64,000 nucleotides of DNA. Source: Candidatus Poribacteria bacterium. Its GTDB lineage: Bacteria; Poribacteria; WGA-4E; PCPOR2b. The stretch spans positions 6,407,378-6,471,377 of the forward strand of contig OZ220744.1 of the NCBI GenBank assembly GCA_965116925.1, written 5' to 3'. Of this stretch, positions 14,081 to 27,391 are shown in pieces; position 1 is the stretch's first letter, and the number at the start of each line of letters is the position of its first letter. A program made the position numbers and the translations under genes. Under the pieces are notes generated by a model, which made no database searches, was not told the origin of the DNA, and saw only the letters and a list, made by a program, of their open reading frames with translations.

Positions 14081-14935
14081 TCACAGTGGACGGAACTCTA
14101 CTAAACGGCTGTTGGCATCAAACCCAGGGGCTCCCACATACTGGATGGCATTTAGATTTATGCTATCCGCATGTGCAAAGTGAATGTGACCACAAAAAAC
14201 AGCGACAAGGTTCTCTGCCCTCACAAGGGTACGCGCAAATTCTAAGGTTGGGGGTAGATCTTCTCCGGTGCCCCATTGATCTCGACCCTCAGGGCCCCAG
14301 TCCGGATCAGCGATTAAAATTGGGTTCTCGAAGCGTTCTAATGTTGGCTCCCGCAGCGTTGGAAGGCTCACAGGGATATGGGTGAGCAGCACTGTTGGTA
14401 TTCCGTTTGCCAGATGTGTAGCTACAAACGCTGTCTGTTCTTCGTCTACTTGATAGATGGAATCATCGACCAGCAAAAACTGGATGCCACCGATTTCATA
14501 TCGGGCATACGCCGCCTCTCCGTGGTGCAGCGGTGCCAATGCCTCCCACCATACTTCCCGCAACTCCCCCCGTCCCTCGACGCCCGGATAGTGCCAGTCG
14601 TGGTTTCCGGAGGTATACAGTACCGGTACGTCCACTTTGTCAATCGACTTCGCGAGGGTTTCGACACCCGCTTGAGAGGGGAAATGTACCATATCACCGG
14701 TCAACGCAACCAGATCCAGAGAGCTGCCCTTGGCTTCTTCCATCAGCTTATCAAAGATCTGTTCTCTTGATGCAAAACGCTCGCATGCCCCTTGACAAGC
14801 CTCTATATGTTCAGCGTCACGGTCATCAATGAGGGCAATGTGTGAATCGGTGATGTGGAGCATCCGAACCGTTTGATCCAATCCTTCGACGCAAATCGTT
14901 GCTGTGTTATCATTCCATTTGTGTGTCGTTCGCAT
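14081..14935 (-). CDS. Calcineurin-like metallophosphoesterase
   Basis: DSH, TGD, GNHD, THIP and GHIH motifs. Confidence 0.9.
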   Translation of the reverse strand: MRTTHKWNDNTATICVEGLDQTVRMLHITDSHIALIDDRDAEHIEACQGACERFASREQIFDKLMEEAKGSSLDLVALTGDMVHFPSQAGVETLAKSIDKVDVPVLYTSGNHDWHYPGVEGRGELREVWWEALAPLHHGEAAYARYEIGGIQFLLVDDSIYQVDEEQTAFVATHLANGIPTVLLTHIPVSLPTLREPTLERFENPILIADPDWGPEGRDQWGTGEDLPPTLEFARTLVRAENLVAVFCGHIHFAHADSINLNAIQYVGAPGFDANSRLVEFRPL

Positions 14936-14971
14936 GATTGTTTTCCTTGTATGTACCCCAAGTTACTAGGT

Positions 14972-15250
14972 TAGGACTTACGCATTTCAGCTCAGTTGGC
15001 GCGGGGAAATCAGATGCTCCGCCCCGATAAATCGGAATGCAAGCACCTGCGGTTGGCTGCGTAAATCGCAAAAAGTGTTAGATTTTGTTAGATTTTGCCA
15101 GGGATGCCGTTAAAGTTAGGATTTACGCATTAGAAGATACTTCTGACTCCCGACAAAATGTTGCGGGGCAAGTCCGAGCGGATTTCCGATAAATCGAGAG
15201 CAGGCTCGTGCCCGGGTATGCCCCACCTACAGTTGGCTGCGTAATGCCTA
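14972..15250. mobile_element. Two tandem small MITE-like elements with TAGGAC/TTTACGCA termini
   Basis: taggacttacgca(14972)...tgcgtaaatc(15067) and taggatttacgca(15117)...tgcgtaatgccta(15250); shared internal ccgataaatcg and cacct.c.gttggc. Confidence 0.6.
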
Positions 15251-15402
15251 TAGGTATTGAAAATCCGTTGGATTGTCGTTAAAGTTGATGTGTTCAATCT
15301 TTCGCTCCAGCGGAGCGATATGTTTATAGAATACCAATGCATCCCATCTCTGCACTCCAGATGAGTGCTATGTGTATAGCAAAACATGTCTAGCTGCCAG
15401 CA

Positions 15403-16920
15403 TTATGAAAGTTGTTCCATAAACCGCTTAGTTACCCGATCTATGGTCTCCTTTACATCAAACAGTGCATCTTCTGCGGGATATAGCTCGTCCTTCTCAA
15501 GTTTCTCATACGGTAAAGCAATTGCATATTCAACCGCTGCAACTTCATAGCAAACTTCTCGGAATTCTCGTGAATCGGTAGAATTGCCTCCAGTTTCCAG
15601 GGCACTAGCGATTTGGGGATGATCTAAGTTTATGAAAATTGTCTTCGTATCTCCGGCGTACCTTGATCGATTTTGTTCAGTAGTGATACGCTCAAATTCA
15701 ATGGAGAAAACTGCTTTTCGCCGTTTTTCGTTCTCTCCGCTTGGATCTTTTCTCGGTTTCGATTTATTTTCTCCCTGTGCAGCCGATTTCTTCCTTGAGG
15801 TATTTCCCTGTCCATCTCCACTCCTAGAACGCCTAACCCTTTGCGTCATTTCAAGGTCCAGCTCTTGTTGCGCGAAGTCTTGATTGAGAATATTCGAGAT
15901 TCTATTAGCTTCTTTCACCAGCTTTGCTTCCATCGCTGATTGACGTTTTTCACGAGCTTGTCTCACAAGTTCTAATCTGATTTCCTCAAGTTCTTGTGAA
16001 AGCCAACCTAGCAGCACCACAACCACGGGATTTTGTCGGTTCAGCGTGTTATTTCTTGTGTTGTCAAAGGCTGGAATGGGCCATTCACCGTCCTCCAAGA
16101 TTGGGACATCGATCTGTCCAAAAATTTGATTCGCGTTCTCTTTTCTTTCAATTCCTGCAAGTGTCGTTTCATGCCAGATGCCGTGAGATAAAATGTCAAT
16201 TCCTCGCGTATCCTCGTCTAACGGTACAGGAGATACCTTGACATTCAGGGATACGTCCCCAATATGTTGGGCAACTCCTTTTGGCGGAAGGCGTTCAAAT
16301 TGTGCTACAGATGGCGGTTCTTTAAACTTGCACACATGCCCGTTTACAGTCACATGGGCACGGGTACGGTAACGGCTGAGATGGCGTTCAACGTATGACA
16401 TCACCTTATCAATATCTAGTCGTTTTATGTTAAATTCGCGAATGACTACAATTGTCCCATCGTCTTCATCTGTTGGCTGATTTACCTCAATGTCTCGAAC
16501 AGGAAAAGGTTCGCCACTTTGTGCCTGTTCAATATCTCTCCTGTGCAGTTCAACGATGTTCCGCGAACCTGCCTGAATTGTGTCAATGCAAAGCAAATTT
16601 GCCAAGCCGAAGGCGGCACATTTGCCCGTACCAAATCGTCCTCGGACTCTTTTTCCCTTTTTTCTAAGAGGATTCTCCCCGTGCATCTCAAAGAAGCTGC
16701 CTAGCTCTTTTTCAGACATACCGCGACTGTTGTCAGATATAGTCACTTCATGGCTTGTTATCTCAACAGCAATAATTGCTCGGAGGTCATCTTTGACAGC
16801 GTCCAGAGAGTTTGCGACGTATTCCCAAACTACTCTAGGCATGGTATTAAAATATGCAGCATTCTGAAGGAAATCCCTAGCTACATTTGAAGTAACCTTG
16901 ATAGCGTGTTGTCTAGCCAT
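15403..16920 (-). CDS. GHKL (MORC/MutL/Hsp90-like) ATPase
   Basis: EYVANSLDA, DNSRGM, GRFGTG and DDGT Bergerat motifs; coiled-coil-like region; C-terminal INLDHP; ATG at 16920 overlaps the upstream TAA (TAATG). Confidence 0.85.
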   Translation of the reverse strand: MARQHAIKVTSNVARDFLQNAAYFNTMPRVVWEYVANSLDAVKDDLRAIIAVEITSHEVTISDNSRGMSEKELGSFFEMHGENPLRKKGKRVRGRFGTGKCAAFGLANLLCIDTIQAGSRNIVELHRRDIEQAQSGEPFPVRDIEVNQPTDEDDGTIVVIREFNIKRLDIDKVMSYVERHLSRYRTRAHVTVNGHVCKFKEPPSVAQFERLPPKGVAQHIGDVSLNVKVSPVPLDEDTRGIDILSHGIWHETTLAGIERKENANQIFGQIDVPILEDGEWPIPAFDNTRNNTLNRQNPVVVVLLGWLSQELEEIRLELVRQAREKRQSAMEAKLVKEANRISNILNQDFAQQELDLEMTQRVRRSRSGDGQGNTSRKKSAAQGENKSKPRKDPSGENEKRRKAVFSIEFERITTEQNRSRYAGDTKTIFINLDHPQIASALETGGNSTDSREFREVCYEVAAVEYAIALPYEKLEKDELYPAEDALFDVKETIDRVTKRFMEQLS

Positions 16921-17501
16921 TACTCCATCTCCTTTGAAAATTTCGTTTGAAGCAGATCCCACAATTCTGATAAGGTCTCATTATCGCTTACCGCGTTCGC
17001 TATGATTGCGTATCGCCGCTGTCTGGTTTTGATCTGAAAATACTCATTCACCCGGGCAAACTCGTAGAAATCTTGTACAGTAATCTCTTTTGATTTATCT
17101 GCAACGAATAGGTGATATGCTTTTGTACTGAATAAACGGTTGCGCTCTAGCTCCTGGTTTGCGGAAATAGAAGCTTTCCTGTATTTAGCTGGGAGTTCAT
17201 CTCTAATAGCATCAAAATCCACAGTTTTTATCCACTTCAAACCTGCAGGACTGAGCATCCAGCCTTTTGTATTATTCCCGACTATCAATTCTCCACATCG
17301 TGCTTTCTTCGCGTCTTGGAGCGCAAAACTAACAGTTGATAAATCAATGTGTTCAGGATATTTTCGCCAATTAAAGCGTCCTGGTGCAATATCATTTACC
17401 TTGAGAGCGACATCCTCACAATCAACGTACGCCGTGTCTCCATCTAAGAGTGCCACGGCTATTGTAACGAACTGTGGTTTTGAGAATTCAATTCTTTGCA
17501 T
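16920..17501 (-). CDS. Hypothetical protein with predicted N-terminal winged helix
   Basis: 193 aa ORF overlapping both neighbours; helix pattern followed by a wing-like GWMLSPAG segment; SD GGAGG. Confidence 0.65.
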   Translation of the reverse strand: MQRIEFSKPQFVTIAVALLDGDTAYVDCEDVALKVNDIAPGRFNWRKYPEHIDLSTVSFALQDAKKARCGELIVGNNTKGWMLSPAGLKWIKTVDFDAIRDELPAKYRKASISANQELERNRLFSTKAYHLFVADKSKEITVQDFYEFARVNEYFQIKTRQRRYAIIANAVSDNETLSELWDLLQTKFSKEME

Positions 17502-19431
17502 TTCCCGCCTCCTTTTCTATCATAACTGTTCTGGTCCATGCGTTGAATGTAAACTTCACGCGCTCTCCCGGTTGACAGTTCAGCAATTCAAAAGGCTTTT
17601 TTAAATGTCGAAATTCATTCTCAACTACGTTTAGTTCACCTGCTTCCTCACTATTAACATAGCAGGGCCAGTTACCACTTAAATCCCGAAATTGTTCACA
17701 AAAAATCGTACCTGAACCTACAGCAACTGCACTGGGGGTGACACTCACTATGATGTTCCCATCCATACGGTATTCAACTTCCGGACGAAGTGGCTGATGT
17801 TCTCTAGCAGCTTGGGCGCGTTCTATATCTTGGTAGGCTATTACCTTCCCGCGCAGCTTATATAAACCTGATTCTATTTTATCAAACAAGGGAGAAGAAT
17901 TTAGGGTTGCATGTAAGGTAGGAAAAGATAGTTCACTTTCTACAAAGGCATGAGCTAATTCGGAATGATGCAATACCGGTCCGATTTCTTCTAAACAATT
18001 CATTATGATAGTTTCACCTTTGCTTAGCTTCTCGTCGCGGGCACCCTCCCAATAATACAATTCATTGTCACATTGGTAGCCGTTAATCCTAAGTATTTCA
18101 GCCATCACATCAGGAGGAGGCACAGGAAATATTGACCTTGATCGAGCAGTATCCCTACTTGCTAGGTATTCTGGTACAGAGGATCCTGACCTTGATATTC
18201 CGTGTCTTAGACCAGCACAGATGTCATCAATATTCAATTGTCCACAGTACTGAAACATCTGATGTAGGCAGCGGTGAAAAACATCACGGGATGAAATTTG
18301 GGAAGGACTGGGAGTAAACCATCCTGTGGAAAGAGCTCTGTATCCTAGTCCTTGCAAGATATCTGTTATCTCTTCTAATTCTATTTCCATTTCTTGGGAT
18401 AGCCACCTAGCATATACGCCTCCGGAAAACTTCCTGTGCCGGTTGATGAGTCTTTTGGCTTTATCAGATAAAGTGTCAACCGCATGTAGTATTTTAGCCG
18501 GGACATCTGATTTGCCTTTGGCTGCAAGTTGTACAGCATACTGTAAATTCTTAGGCATTTGCAGCCAACGAATCTTACAATCAGTAAACAGATTACAGAT
18601 TGCAATCATGGCTTCTACTGTGTTCGTATCGACAAAGTCCTGTGATGTCCAATCACCAACGAGTCCTGATGACCGAATACGCTGCGCCCATCCTGCATAG
18701 GTAATATCGAGACCTAAATCTCTCGCGATGAGGAAGGCGGACTGCATTCTATGCAGAGCGGGTTTAGTCTTTAGGTTGCTGATGGAGATGGCCTTTTCCT
18801 TGAGCTCACTGCGTATCTGCCTTACTCGTTCACGCGAAATACCTAGCTTCTCCCCAGTTTGTCTCAGGTTTTTAGGTTCTAAACCATACGTGGAGAGTAA
18901 AACGGGTACACAGTGTTGGCCGGGAATCTGGTTGAGGAAAAACTCGATTTCCTCACAGATATTGAGTGAAGAGCCTAAAATGGTTGCTAAAACCTCATAT
19001 ACATGATTACTCTCTATCGTTTTGATCTCCGCACGCCAGTCTTTAACCCAGTCTTTTATCGATTTTTCTGCAATAGGCACCTCATAGTGGAGCAATCCTC
19101 TTGATAGCTGCTTCTTGACTAATTGTACTTGCCACATAACTACTACCCATGAAATTTCATTATCTTGGGGTGTAATTGTATCTGTATTCGCTTTAACCTC
19201 AGAATCACCGAGGATTTTCACCTGATCCAGCTTATTTTTTATTTCTAAGATAGATTTTCTTCCGAGACCGGGAGTTGTTCGGAGTCTGTCCGATTCAACT
19301 AGCTGTAAGACTTCTCCAACTGTCTGAATACGGGCGCGTGTGAGGGCGTTGAAGGAACGATTGGTTAGGTTTAATTGATCGATGGAATCTTCCGGTGAAA
19401 GATTAGCATAATTTAGGAAAAGTTGATTCAT
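17488..19431 (-). CDS. Protein with RNA polymerase alpha-CTD domain and sigma70 region-4 HTH
   Basis: SIDQLNLTNRSFNAL..IQTVGEV..GLGRKSILEI matches alphaCTD; NLRQTGEKLGISRERVRQI matches sigma region 4.2; remainder unrecognised. Confidence 0.8.
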   Translation of the reverse strand: MNQLFLNYANLSPEDSIDQLNLTNRSFNALTRARIQTVGEVLQLVESDRLRTTPGLGRKSILEIKNKLDQVKILGDSEVKANTDTITPQDNEISWVVVMWQVQLVKKQLSRGLLHYEVPIAEKSIKDWVKDWRAEIKTIESNHVYEVLATILGSSLNICEEIEFFLNQIPGQHCVPVLLSTYGLEPKNLRQTGEKLGISRERVRQIRSELKEKAISISNLKTKPALHRMQSAFLIARDLGLDITYAGWAQRIRSSGLVGDWTSQDFVDTNTVEAMIAICNLFTDCKIRWLQMPKNLQYAVQLAAKGKSDVPAKILHAVDTLSDKAKRLINRHRKFSGGVYARWLSQEMEIELEEITDILQGLGYRALSTGWFTPSPSQISSRDVFHRCLHQMFQYCGQLNIDDICAGLRHGISRSGSSVPEYLASRDTARSRSIFPVPPPDVMAEILRINGYQCDNELYYWEGARDEKLSKGETIIMNCLEEIGPVLHHSELAHAFVESELSFPTLHATLNSSPLFDKIESGLYKLRGKVIAYQDIERAQAAREHQPLRPEVEYRMDGNIIVSVTPSAVAVGSGTIFCEQFRDLSGNWPCYVNSEEAGELNVVENEFRHLKKPFELLNCQPGERVKFTFNAWTRTVMIEKEAGNAKN

Positions 19432-19538
19432 AATGCAAATCCTTATCTTTAGTAAAGCACCCCGTACTTGGCAAGTACCAAATCTGCCAATTTACTTAAT
19501 GTGGTAATCATAGTGCTGAATTTGTACCTGATGACAAG

Positions 19539-19610
19539 CTAAACATACGATTCAATACGGTTAATTCCTTTTACTATGTCTTGAAGGTATACGTCATAGG
19601 TTCGTGACAT
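19539..19610 (-). pseudogene. Truncated HEPN/DUF86 (HepT-like) toxin, N-terminal 23 codons only
   Basis: MSRTYDVYLQDIVKGINRIESYV-stop overlaps the end of the MNT gene and resembles DUF86 N-termini. Confidence 0.7.
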
Positions 19611-19905
19611 ACTCTACCTGTTTTTCAATATAAGGTTTCAAGTCCGATTTAACGGACTGAACGGCAACAAGGTCAACCTTCTTCTCAAACAGATCTTCGA
19701 GGAAGAGAACAAGCCCCATGTAGTTGCGAAAAGTTGATTTTTCTAATTCAACGAGTAGATCAATGTCACTTGTAGCGTGTGCTGTTCCATTCACGTAAGA
19801 TCCGAACAATCCGATTTGCTTGACCCCAAACTTCCTCAGTGTATCCCGGTTATCCGCAAGTGTCTGTTTGATAAAGTGCTTGCTGAGAACTGCTCGGTTT
19901 TCCAA
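19594..19905 (-). CDS. Minimal nucleotidyltransferase (MNT) antitoxin
   Basis: LFGSYV.G.....SDIDLLVE and VDLV motifs; TTG start at 19905 behind GGAGG. Confidence 0.9.
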   Translation of the reverse strand: MENRAVLSKHFIKQTLADNRDTLRKFGVKQIGLFGSYVNGTAHATSDIDLLVELEKSTFRNYMGLVLFLEDLFEKKVDLVAVQSVKSDLKPYIEKQVEYVTNL

Positions 19906-20125
19906 CTTAAAACCCTCCACTGAAGCCTTTAAGAGCATGGCTAGCAGTTACAATGCTTTTATGAAAATGATCTTTTACTCGTTTAGGTAGCGACTTAACA
20001 TTATTATACATCTTTTTATGTCGTTTATCAAACGAGTCCTGTAGTATAATTACACCACGACTAAATAAAAAAATCCAAGCAGCAAATTGTCTCAGAGAAT
20101 CTACGGAGGAAAAAGGAGGATAACC

Positions 20126-20920
20126 ATGCGCGTTGAACTTTTAGCCATTGATTGCCAAAACGACTTCTGTGATCCGGGTGGCGCGCTTTATGTGCCGGGC
20201 GCAGAAAATGATATGGCCTGTTTAGCGACATTTATCGATCGGATCGGTAGTCGTCTACACAATATGCACTTCACACTTGACAGCCATCACACGGTTGATG
20301 TCGGGCATCCAATATTTTGGAAAAGTAGCGATGGTGAGCCGCCGGAATCATTTACTACCATCACGCATGAGGATGTTAAAGCTGGAAACTGGCTGCCGTA
20401 TGATCCAGCGTTTACTCAACGGATGTTGGATTACACGCGGCTGTTGGAGGAAAATAATCGGTATCAACTGACGATTTGGCCCATACACTGCCGGATCGCA
20501 ACGTGGGGGAGCGCGCTCTATCCTTCTGTGGATCAGGCGGTGCGAGATTGGGAGACATCTCAATTGAGGGTTGTTGATTTCGTAACGAAGGGTTCAAATA
20601 TTTTCACCGAGCACTACAGCGCGGTGAAGGCGGATGTCCCGGATCCAGAAGACCCCGCCACGCAGCTCAATACCGACCTAATCCAGAAACTGGAAAGGTG
20701 TGATCAGGTGATTATTGTCGGTGAAGCGTTATCTCACTGCGTCGCAAGTACGGTGCGGGATATCGCAACCGAGTTTGGTGATGAAGGGGTGAAGAAATTT
20801 GTTATTCTTGAGGACTGTATGTCGAATGTCCCCGGCTTTGAATCGCTCGGCGATGCGTTCCTGCACGATATGTCACAACTGGGGGTGACCATTACCAACA
20901 GCGTGGACTTCATGCGATGA
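20126..20920 (+). CDS. pncA: Nicotinamidase / isochorismatase-family cysteine hydrolase
   Basis: IDCQNDF, LDSH, WPIHC, KG..TEHYS and GEALSHCV motifs; SD AGGAGG. Confidence 0.85.
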   Translation: MRVELLAIDCQNDFCDPGGALYVPGAENDMACLATFIDRIGSRLHNMHFTLDSHHTVDVGHPIFWKSSDGEPPESFTTITHEDVKAGNWLPYDPAFTQRMLDYTRLLEENNRYQLTIWPIHCRIATWGSALYPSVDQAVRDWETSQLRVVDFVTKGSNIFTEHYSAVKADVPDPEDPATQLNTDLIQKLERCDQVIIVGEALSHCVASTVRDIATEFGDEGVKKFVILEDCMSNVPGFESLGDAFLHDMSQLGVTITNSVDFMR

Positions 20921-25854: not shown

Positions 25855-27292
25855 TCAATCCAAATAGTCCATCTCCGGACGACGGTCCCAGCGAAATTGA
25901 TCTTTCGGTTTGGTATGTTCCACCCAAGCCCGGATAACCTCTAGGTCTACCCGTTTCTGTTCCATCTTCTCGGCAACTGCTTCGGGATCCCAACCTGCCA
26001 GCACCTCGGTAGTCAGTTGCTCCCGTATTTCTCGGCAACTTGCATCTTGTGCACGATCCGATAGTTCGTCAGGGTCATCAGCCAGATTAAAAAGCTGTGG
26101 CTCTTGACCGTGGTAGTAATTCAGTTTCCACTCATCCCGTCGAATCATCCTATGCAAGCAGTCCTCGTAGGTACAGTATTCGGAGAAGGCGAGATCTTCC
26201 CACTCTGTGTCAGGATGACGCACCAGATCGAGCACGCTTCTGCCGCAAGCATTAGGCAGGGGTGGTGCACCGAGAGCTTCCAGCATTGTCGCGTTCAAGT
26301 CGAGCGAACTGAGAACGCGATCACACTGGACACCTTCCGGCAAGGCTCCGGGCCAAGAGAGGATCGCTGGTACTTTGACCGAGGCTTCGTAAAACGTGCG
26401 CTTCATCCACAATCCGTGTTCGCCCATCTGATCCCCGTGATCGGAACTATAGATGATAAGCGTGTTCTCTGCTAGGTCATTCTTTCGGAGTGCTTCGAGA
26501 ATCTCACCAATCATGATATCCATCCGCGTCACTAACGCCCAATATGCCGTCCGTACTCTAAGAATCTCTGCTTCGGAAACATCTACGAGATTGCCCCACT
26601 CTCGCCACCACTTGAAGTAAGGGTGAAGTGCGTCGGAGTACGGTTCGGGATGTTTGGGGAGAGTCATGACATCTTGATAGAGTTCATAGTCCTCTCGACG
26701 TGCTACATAAGGCGAATGCGGTAGCATGAATCCCACAGAGAGAGAACTGTTCCGTTGGCAGACCTGCTCGCTTTTGCACGCCGAGCCGGTCTAAGTAGTT
26801 GACGGTCGCAGCGGTCACGTCTTCATCGTGAACCTGATAGCTGCTTTGACCGGATCCTGCTTGTTGCAGGCTAGCACGCATATTTTTCGGGGCGACTCCG
26901 TTACCGGGGTAATTGCCGCCGTGGTCACCGACCAGACGCTCCGCATAGCCGTGCAGTTGATCGGGTCCCAATCCGTGCATCCGCCCAATCAACACCGGCT
27001 GGTAGCCCGCCGCTCCCATCGCGTGTGCGAACGTGGGAATACCGGAATCCATGATGTGATTGTTCGTCCAGACCTCGATTTCAGATGGATACCTGCCTGC
27101 CAACATCGACATCCGTGAGGGCACACAGACCGGTGACGGACAGTAGACGTTTGTGAAGTGGACTCCCTTTGCTGCTAAACTATCGAGATTCGGTGTTTGC
27201 ACCAGCGGATCGCCGTAACAGCCGATGACTGCGGGATTATGCTGGTCGGAGTGGATGTACAAAAGGTTCGGACGTTCTGTATCTGTTCCCAT
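25855..27292 (-). pseudogene. Choline-sulfatase-like sulfatase split by a frameshift
   Basis: 5' ORF has SDQH, CVPSR and GRMH; 3' ORF has PHSPY, SDHG and LFNL..DP.E; frames switch at a (CT)n tract at 26737-26745. Confidence 0.85.
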
Positions 27293-27391
27293 TATCGTTT
27301 TATCCTTTGTTTGTCTCAAAGAGGAGCATCTATTTTATACCGGAACACTACAAAATTTATCCAACTAACAACAATGCGAGGACAAAAAATT

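Follow-up and report, generated by a model that had tools for sequence, protein, structure and literature searches.

A conserved three-gene cassette around a MORC-like GHKL ATPase in Candidatus Poribacteria: a possible nuclease-free DNA-silencing system

A stretch of 64,000 nucleotides from a closed 6.47-Mb genome of a Candidatus Poribacteria bacterium (contig OZ220744.1; the whole stretch is referred to as the window) contains three minus-strand genes, which a preliminary description presented as a horizontally acquired conflict system. The locus raises two questions: whether the three genes form a unit that is conserved elsewhere, and what such a unit could do. The genes, named A, B and C, are the following:

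19431-17488, minus strand: gene A, 647 amino acids (aa), with a C-terminal domain of the RNA polymerase alpha subunit (alpha-CTD, 15-69), sigma70 region 4 (sigma-4, 178-207), a helical region, winged-helix-like repeats (~330-545) and a C-terminal beta domain (548-642)
17501-16920, minus strand: gene B, 193 aa, with an N-terminal winged helix and a helical domain at the C-terminus; the constant partner encoded upstream of the ATPase
16920-15403, minus strand: gene C, 505 aa from ATG, with a GHKL and S5 ATPase, a long helix or coiled coil (298-368), a disordered linker (365-401) and a zincin-like C-terminal domain without HExxH

The three genes are co-oriented with overlapping junctions, and both the 14-nucleotide overlap of A and B and the TAATG at the B/C junction reported earlier are present. 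The GTG at 16962 given by the open reading frame (ORF) lister as the start of C falls within B, and the ATG at 16920 was taken.

We scanned the GTDB genomes with an alignment of C and obtained 193 relatives; the linkage counts refer to the best 79 of the 193 loci. Based on profile searches, 64 of the 79 loci carry A, B and C, in the order ABC (44 loci) or BCA (19), or with A divergent (one locus, L079). The remaining 15 comprise eight loci cut by contig ends, one without B (L032) and six with C alone. B is found directly before C in 71 of the 79. The pairwise identities of the three proteins co-vary over 34 loci (rho 0.75-0.84), a correlation to which kinship contributes. Checked in this way, the three genes do constitute a conserved unit. 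The six stand-alone C homologs (L050, L051, L052, L059, L062 and L069) belong to Chloroflexota and lie among housekeeping genes, with about 36-43% identity; five of them are present in a quick tree of 75 rows, where they form a separate Chloroflexota branch (SH-like approximate likelihood ratio test, SH-aLRT, 100). At L079 (11779-15277), C is followed by a second HATPase_c_3 protein, an HATPase_c gene and an ORF resembling a receiver-domain protein, an arrangement that resembles HEF_HK/paraMORC in the accessible part of PMC8011034; GmrSD and RelA/SpoT genes are found further on.

A search seeded with B in two phylum samples found it in 6 of 401 and 4 of 401 genomes, centres included. In all eight new loci a GHKL-type ATPase gene follows B: three are full ABC or BCA cassettes, and five contain a longer sister ATPase (~650-790 aa), with a Pfam HATPase match in three of the five and a tail weakly similar to that of C (E 7e-4, probability 26%). 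No A was detected beside the sister ATPase in the fetched DNA of these five loci, two stretches of which are short. Because these sister pairs come without a detected A, the core is formed by B and the ATPase, to which A is added as a dedicated third component in the subfamily of the cassette. The sister units (L120-L124; for example L123:4832-7678 and L124:4952-7809) consist of a B homolog and a GHKL-S5 ATPase that has additional beta-rich domains and a tail resembling that of C; in L123 the unit is followed by a DndB-family gene and a GIY-YIG gene.

Concerning distribution, the relatives are found in Poribacteria, Chloroflexota, Acidobacteriota, Actinomycetota, Bacillota, Verrucomicrobiota, Planctomycetota and other phyla. 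In the 75-row tree the 16 Poribacteria rows form one clade among Chloroflexota rows, and Chloroflexota need at least seven changes on starred branches; transfer between phyla, its direction left aside, is likely from these sequences. Within the host phylum B is present in 19 of 176 genomes (one match is weak), and within the host genus the cassette is present in 7 of 20 genomes. The idea of horizontal acquisition thus stands as far as a patchy unit transferred between phyla is concerned, but not as a fresh arrival in the host genus, where the synonymous divergence (dS) of C equals that of the flanking genes; the dS of A and B is mostly higher. Over seven genus members the ratio of non-synonymous to synonymous divergence (dN/dS) is 0.08-0.13 for the folded domains of C, 0.15-0.17 for B and 0.14-0.29 for A; eight flanking genes have values of 0.08-0.13. 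As judged from these ratios, the cassette is under purifying selection.

The C protein matches HATPase_c_3 in Pfam (PF13589, residues 27-151, E 9e-16), and the four GHKL motifs seen earlier are all present (EYVAN, DNSRGM, GRFGTGK and GT). They follow the ExxxN, DxGxG, GxxG and GT pattern of the Bergerat fold: among 51 aligned homologs, EYVxN or EYISN is found in 51, GxFGTGK in 50 and GT in 51, while motif II has Ser in the window copy and Gly in 26 of the 51. The structure model of C (predicted local distance difference test, pLDDT, 83) is closest to MORC3 (Z 22.0, root-mean-square deviation (rmsd) 4.1, 284 residues aligned) and MORC2 (Z 22.0), with an rmsd of 4.1-4.4 over 284-292 residues across both. 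SMCHD1 (Z 18.6), GRP94 (18.4), TRAP1 (18.3), MutL (17.2) and topoisomerases rank below them; Foldseek mixes TRAP1 and MORC among its top matches. An S5 domain follows the GHKL domain, the model aligning over 11-324 with MORC2/3 and MutL, and contains the invariant basic residue R289, presumably the S5 finger residue. The probable coiled coil of the preliminary description corresponds to the long helix (~70 residues), and its INLDHP motif is also there. At the Arg position of the MORC signature GhXhhpXXRhl (G240...248, placed by pattern alignment), I, V, N or L is found in 51 of 51 homologs. Because the Arg of the published signature is absent, C is MORC-like but not of the MORC family proper; its earlier designation as a MORC-like ATPase holds for the fold only. 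A MORC2-like basic linker was rejected as a conserved feature: the net charge is +8 here but has a median of 0 in the 51 homologs.

In agreement with the earlier reading of the letters, no methyltransferase or nuclease family matched the cassette in Pfam, PADLOC or NCBIfam; restriction-enzyme and Mza matches are weak and limited to the GHKL domain of C. Neither an REase nor a TIR tail was detected in C by Pfam or fold comparison.

The A protein contains an alpha-CTD (PF03118, E 6e-15) and sigma-4 (PF04545, E 1.7e-6); by Pfam, sigma-4 is found in 39 of 39 aligned homologs and alpha-CTD in 32. The later domains, winged-helix-like repeats and the beta domain, were judged from the alignment. The most conserved part of A is the recognition helix of sigma-4, with R202 invariant and R200, E201, R204 and Q205 kept in at least 92% of the 39 homologs. 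Over 110 alpha-CTD repeats, the positions that contact DNA in the E. coli domain (E. coli numbering) are kept to different degrees (R265 78%, N268 75%, G296 93%, K298 64% and S299 50%). There is one alpha-CTD in the window copy and one to seven in the GTDB loci, whereas 13 long A homologs (1168-1973 aa, core 64-78% identical) contain 4-11. Long acidic, Q/N/S/T-rich linkers separate the expanded arrays (P0392, 1973 aa; L014:5411-9433; L019:5946-9434). For the last winged helix of A there is a HARE-HTH lead (Atlas score 0.78; hhalign E 0.002, probability 12%), with no match to PF05066 (HARE-HTH) over A in five genomes. Profiles of this winged helix and of the C-terminal domain have no significant match among PDB sequences. 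A B3/EcoRII-N identity of the C-terminal domain was not supported; the likeness to B3 is by eye, a guess. Individual A proteins show further features: a weak PspA/IM30 match at the N-terminus (L019), zinc ribbons (L063) and a weak NgoFVII B3-like match (L053).

The B protein has no match in Pfam, PADLOC or NCBIfam. In its model (pLDDT 82) the first 105 residues resemble winged-helix proteins (top Z 8.6, rmsd 2.7 over 75 aligned residues) and the remainder is helical; Foldseek returned nothing at E<=0.001. Comparison of B with one Mrr_N sequence gave a probability of 3%, and that of an A winged helix with B 0.3%. A predicted B-C complex scored 0.02 against a mark of 0.32, which speaks neither for nor against interaction. 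Fusions include the C-terminal half of A joined to B (P0254), tandem winged-helix B proteins (P0264, P0266) and the B N-domain with a weak alpha-CTD match (P0309), as well as fusions that involve an unannotated 260-aa N-domain (P0323) and DUF6508 (P0328). The B family comprises 647 clusters at 50% identity and has so far been unannotated; it now gains an assigned partner in GHKL ATPases.

What could such a unit do? MORC and other GHKL proteins dimerise and close on DNA with ATP. Our preferred reading, held tentatively and at somewhat less than even odds, is that A, B and C form a nuclease-free DNA clamp powered by ATP, which A would direct to promoter-like sequences and which would silence invading DNA. 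It was chosen because all recognised parts are DNA binders or an ATPase and no effector enzyme is fixed. In this scheme C would dimerise and close on DNA with ATP, and B would load or regulate C. A would read UP-element-like and -35-like DNA through alpha-CTD and sigma-4, and further DNA through its winged helices. The clamp would then block RNA polymerase or compact the DNA. Candidate cues for sparing the host's own DNA are strong UP/-35 promoters, AT-rich DNA and modified bases read by the winged helices.

Several results favour the clamp. Every domain recognised in A and B belongs to a DNA-binding type, and the DNA-contact residues of sigma-4 and alpha-CTD in A are kept, while the activator-contact surface of the alpha-CTD repeats is not host-like. 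To these are added the tight linkage and co-divergence of the genes, the rank of MORC3 and MORC2 among the fold matches, and the lack of a fixed nuclease, methylase or helicase. The unit also behaves like a conflict system: it is patchy in phylum and genus, its slot is empty in a near-identical contig, transposases lie inside A or C at two loci (L011 and L068), and mobile genes are enriched among its neighbours. The three complete cassettes of the B-seeded search lie beside genes for a Pycsar effector, an Eco57I-type methylase and a SIR2-DUF4020 protein, respectively, and the stretch from alpha-CTD to HTH in A also matches PglW of BREX.

Other results weigh against the clamp. Clamp, DNA binding and protection are predictions from sequence and models, and the cassette encodes no mark of self and non-self. 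A is not needed for the ATPase core, because there are sister pairs without A in the fetched DNA as well as six stand-alone C genes. Only 30 of the 89 repeats of the expanded arrays retain R265, so many array repeats may bind DNA poorly. No region of the cassette has a dN/dS above 1 (range 0.08-0.38). The zincin-like domain, the most conserved part of C, is explained by the clamp only as a dimerisation or binding surface. The genomic context adds to these points. The neighbour set comprised, on each side of the cassette, the two closest genes encoding 120 aa or more, together with inserted genes; with a single member kept per cluster this gave 180 proteins, scanned at E 1e-5. As control, 149 far genes were drawn from the same loci, and the 126 that were left after removal of 23 edge ORFs were scanned at E 1e-8. 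Classes were assigned by hand, the cut-offs differ, small toxin-antitoxin genes are missed and far genes may share an island. On this basis the proposed enrichment in defence islands was not borne out (defence families 16/180 neighbours vs 8/126 far genes, p=0.52). Most neighbours are housekeeping genes, and the copies in Phototrophicaceae and in the host genus sit at fixed sites.

The first rival explanation, which we consider unlikely, is a decoy-guard abortive defence, in which A would mimic surfaces of alpha-CTD and sigma-4 that are attacked or hijacked by phage proteins, and its binding or modification would switch on the B-C ATPase and arrest the cell. Alpha-CTD and sigma-4 are targeted by ModA/Alt, AsiA and MotA of phage T4. 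The varying repeat number fits a decoy, as does the fast evolution of the repeats, the fastest-evolving folded part of the cassette (dN/dS 0.29; the polymorphism ratio pN/pS is ~0.6 in 11 close pairs), in which position 265 is variable. However, the Poribacteria repeats are no closer to the alpha-CTD of host RpoA (mean 28%, max 36%) than those of other phyla (mean 28%; one host RpoA compared). The ceiling on dN/dS given above and the lack of a recognisable toxic effector domain also speak against a decoy, and the clamp is preferred.

Similarly doubtful is the explanation that the cassette is an accessory reader-motor module serving unlinked or variable effectors (restriction nucleases, methylases, SIR2, toxin-antitoxin toxins) or regulating neighbouring defence genes, that is, a stripped-down relative of MORC restriction-modification (RM) operons and of Mza, systems compared with the cassette at the end. 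Methylases or nucleases adjoin the cassette at L016, L017, L032, L053, L054, L067, L068, L096 and L118, and the three complete cassettes of the B-seeded search adjoin a Pycsar effector and an Mrr_N protein, an Eco57I-type methylase and a SIR2-DUF4020 protein, respectively. Some loci do sit in clear defence islands. Such neighbours, however, vary by locus, are often on the opposite strand and are a minority, none of the 180 neighbours being a fixed nuclease, methylase or helicase partner; moreover, the cassette is kept intact under purifying selection amid housekeeping genes. Transposases and integrases are found in 11/180 neighbours vs 0/126 far genes (p=0.003), and because mobile genes are enriched in this way the cassette prefers insertion-prone sites. 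One small gene pair recurs close to the cassette in L038, L047, L060, L072 and L074, which belong to different phyla, and is directly upstream in four of them; the scanned copy contains a PIN domain.

A cryptic enzyme, with the zincin/YbeY-like tail of C as an effector with a non-canonical nuclease or protease site, is quite improbable. The tail (330-505) matches the folds of YbeY (Z 8.9, rmsd 4.2, 110 residues aligned), selecase (6.9) and Wss1 (6.6), but these Z scores are middling, come from the whole-protein model and lie in a range that the tool calls common; its profile has no significant match among PDB sequences. It has the lowest dN/dS of the cassette (0.08 for the zincin-like domain), with R418, N431, H434 and Q436 invariant and E459, E464, Y465 and R495 kept in at least 90%. 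On the other hand, HExxH is present in 0 of 51 homologs, the corresponding helix reading YEVAxxEY, and neither HExxH nor the H-x3-H-x5-H metal site of zincins and YbeY is found, H434 being the sole conserved His of the domain. The INxxHP motif, which is also found at the start of the Hsp90 dimerisation domain, gives the tail a different likeness, TRAP1 and HtpG aligning through to the C-terminus, and the sister ATPase family keeps few of the conserved tail residues. A non-defence role would make the cassette an accessory regulator of transcription or of the nucleoid, or else a selfish module persisting at neutral insertion sites. Such a role would agree with the mostly housekeeping neighbours without defence enrichment over the control, with the fact that some lineages have long kept the cassette at a single site and with the absence of close relatives in viral contigs and phages, and in plasmids at 1e-20, but is very unlikely given the rare, scattered occurrence over many phyla (as in the two phylum samples), the lack of a consistent metabolic neighbour, the repeated gene disruption and the accordion-like repeats. 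A distant ATPase homolog (23%) is encoded on a Rhizobium leguminosarum plasmid (L105:7941-9482), by profiles without A, B or a matching tail.

Within the window the cassette lies in an interval with the following further features:

19594..19938, minus strand: MNT (minimal nucleotidyltransferase) gene, PF01909, MntA model under cut-off, PADLOC PDC-S09; upstream of the cassette
19539..19610, minus strand: HEPN stub, partner of the MNT gene, 23 codons by translation; full-length copy (114 aa) in relative L080
20003..20031, minus strand: candidate sigma70-type promoter-like site upstream of MNT, TTGATA-17-TATAAT, 11/12 consensus matches
14980..15385, no strand: MITE/REP-like genome-wide repeat (blastn against own genome; local repeats D4, D7), between the cassette and the metallophosphoesterase gene
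14953..19557, no strand: segment missing from relatives with an empty slot, 14952 being joined to ~19558-19578 (L081, L085, L087 and contig joints in runs X1, X4 and X5)

The interval between the metallophosphoesterase and isochorismatase genes (window 14936-20086; L080-L098) is a variable slot across the genus. Both flanking genes are present in 20 of 20 genomes, and in the 13 without the cassette the slot is empty or contains MNT/HEPN, another gene or an insertion sequence (IS), with no cassette remnant. Across the genus it can be vacant or be occupied by MNT, alone or together with HEPN, by a ~312-aa gene, by IS elements or by a methylase of the Eco57I/MmeI type (L096:1452-4910). In RNA-library runs, of which contigs only were used, X1 and X4 represent strains that lack the cassette, and in X5 it is covered in scraps only; a contig that skips the cassette (X1, X4; one study) has 59 differences in 3953 flanking bases, with the left flank 98.5% identical. 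The MNT gene occurs in relatives both with and without the cassette; it is a passenger of the same slot and stands outside the conserved unit. The broken HEPN gene placed ~110 bp before the cassette is indeed there, its stub stopping 107 bp ahead of A. The MITEs said to lie at the other end are repeated genome-wide (15311-15370 has up to 92 blastn matches in the own genome) and are consistent with MITE/REP-like elements. The AT-richness noted earlier is also evident: GC is 43.4% in the cassette vs 50% in the flanks and 49.2% in the genome, only 0.8% of 6468 same-size genome windows being as low, and at third codon positions it is 0.38-0.39 vs 0.51-0.54 in five flanking genes. No minus-strand terminator-like site was found within 14900-20130. 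The site at 20003..20031 could drive read-through into the cassette, but it is a lead only, because 8 promoter-like sites were found vs 11 expected by chance. Elsewhere in the window, a sulfatase-like gene (25855-27319) seems to be broken into two ORFs that overlap (27319-26684 and 26736-25855).

As first stated, the cassette corresponds to no named system: PADLOC and NCBIfam gave domain-level matches only, and no model names the unit. Searches of the full-text literature, in which subscription papers are thinly covered, gave no description of it, and supplements of defence-prediction papers may list these families; the accessible parts of 10.64898/2026.09.30.754977, PMC10853773 and PMC8011034 do not show it.

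Prokaryotic MORC/paraMORC ATPases occur mainly in RM operons with helicases, methylases and nucleases, according to the part of the source available (PMC2292703, Iyer, Abhiman, Aravind 2008). C resembles them in GHKL plus S5, four intact motifs, a MORC-like fold, a conserved C-terminal extension and a sporadic distribution, but lacks the signature Arg (0/51). Unlike those operons, the cassette has no fixed SFII helicase, methylase or endonuclease (sporadic cases only among 79 loci), its partners being A and B. In the Mza system, as covered by the available part of PMC9523054, mzaA is called a sigma factor and a sigma-factor gene is joined to MORC-associated genes. MzaABCDE is thus similar in encoding a sigma-4-bearing protein alongside a GHKL ATPase. 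However, the MzaA model matches only the sigma-4 stretch of A (profile ~598-659 of 683); 26 of 39 A homologs match it, in sigma-4 only for the nine matching of ten inspected. C scores 23 bits against MzaB (cut-off 850, E 1.8e-5), there is no conserved neighbour like MzaC-E, and B has no counterpart. An MzaB search of 176 phylum genomes gave no match, the controls being equally silent. PglW of type 2 BREX has, in the accessible portion of PMC12839542, an alpha-CTD and three winged helices, and winged helices appear as sensors of N6-methyladenine (6mA) in that of PMC11037411. A shares the succession of alpha-CTD and several winged-helix modules, its homologs matching the PglW profile at ~800-975, but has no NERD nuclease, kinase or iSTAND domain, and no PglX/Y/Z or other BREX gene is present. 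Closest in modular idea to A are the alpha-CTD/sigma-3/4/HARE-HTH proteins, in which RNA polymerase parts are united in one chain and which Aravind and Iyer (2012) reportedly proposed as promoter-binding mimics; HARE-HTH membership of A is unconfirmed.

The eukaryotic silencers MORC2, MORC3 and SMCHD1 are, in the model, the best structural matches of the ATPase module of C. These proteins work without a nuclease and are recruited by partner proteins. They differ from C in sequence (15% identity), and C has no CW/PHD or SMC hinge and has the zincin-like tail; a function shared with them is suggested by analogy. Predictions for prokaryotic MORC-type ATPases have so far paired them with nucleases and methylases; eukaryotic MORCs, by contrast, silence DNA and leave it uncut. 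It is an attractive if rather unlikely possibility that the cassette is a bacterial MORC silencing complex, in which a mimic of RNA polymerase whose alpha-CTD array can expand would guide an ATP-driven clamp and shut invader promoters without cutting or methylating, as a prokaryotic counterpart of the MORC silencing of viruses and transposons. The compact, conserved three-gene unit offers a small, testable model for asking whether bacteria already possess MORC-based transcriptional silencing.

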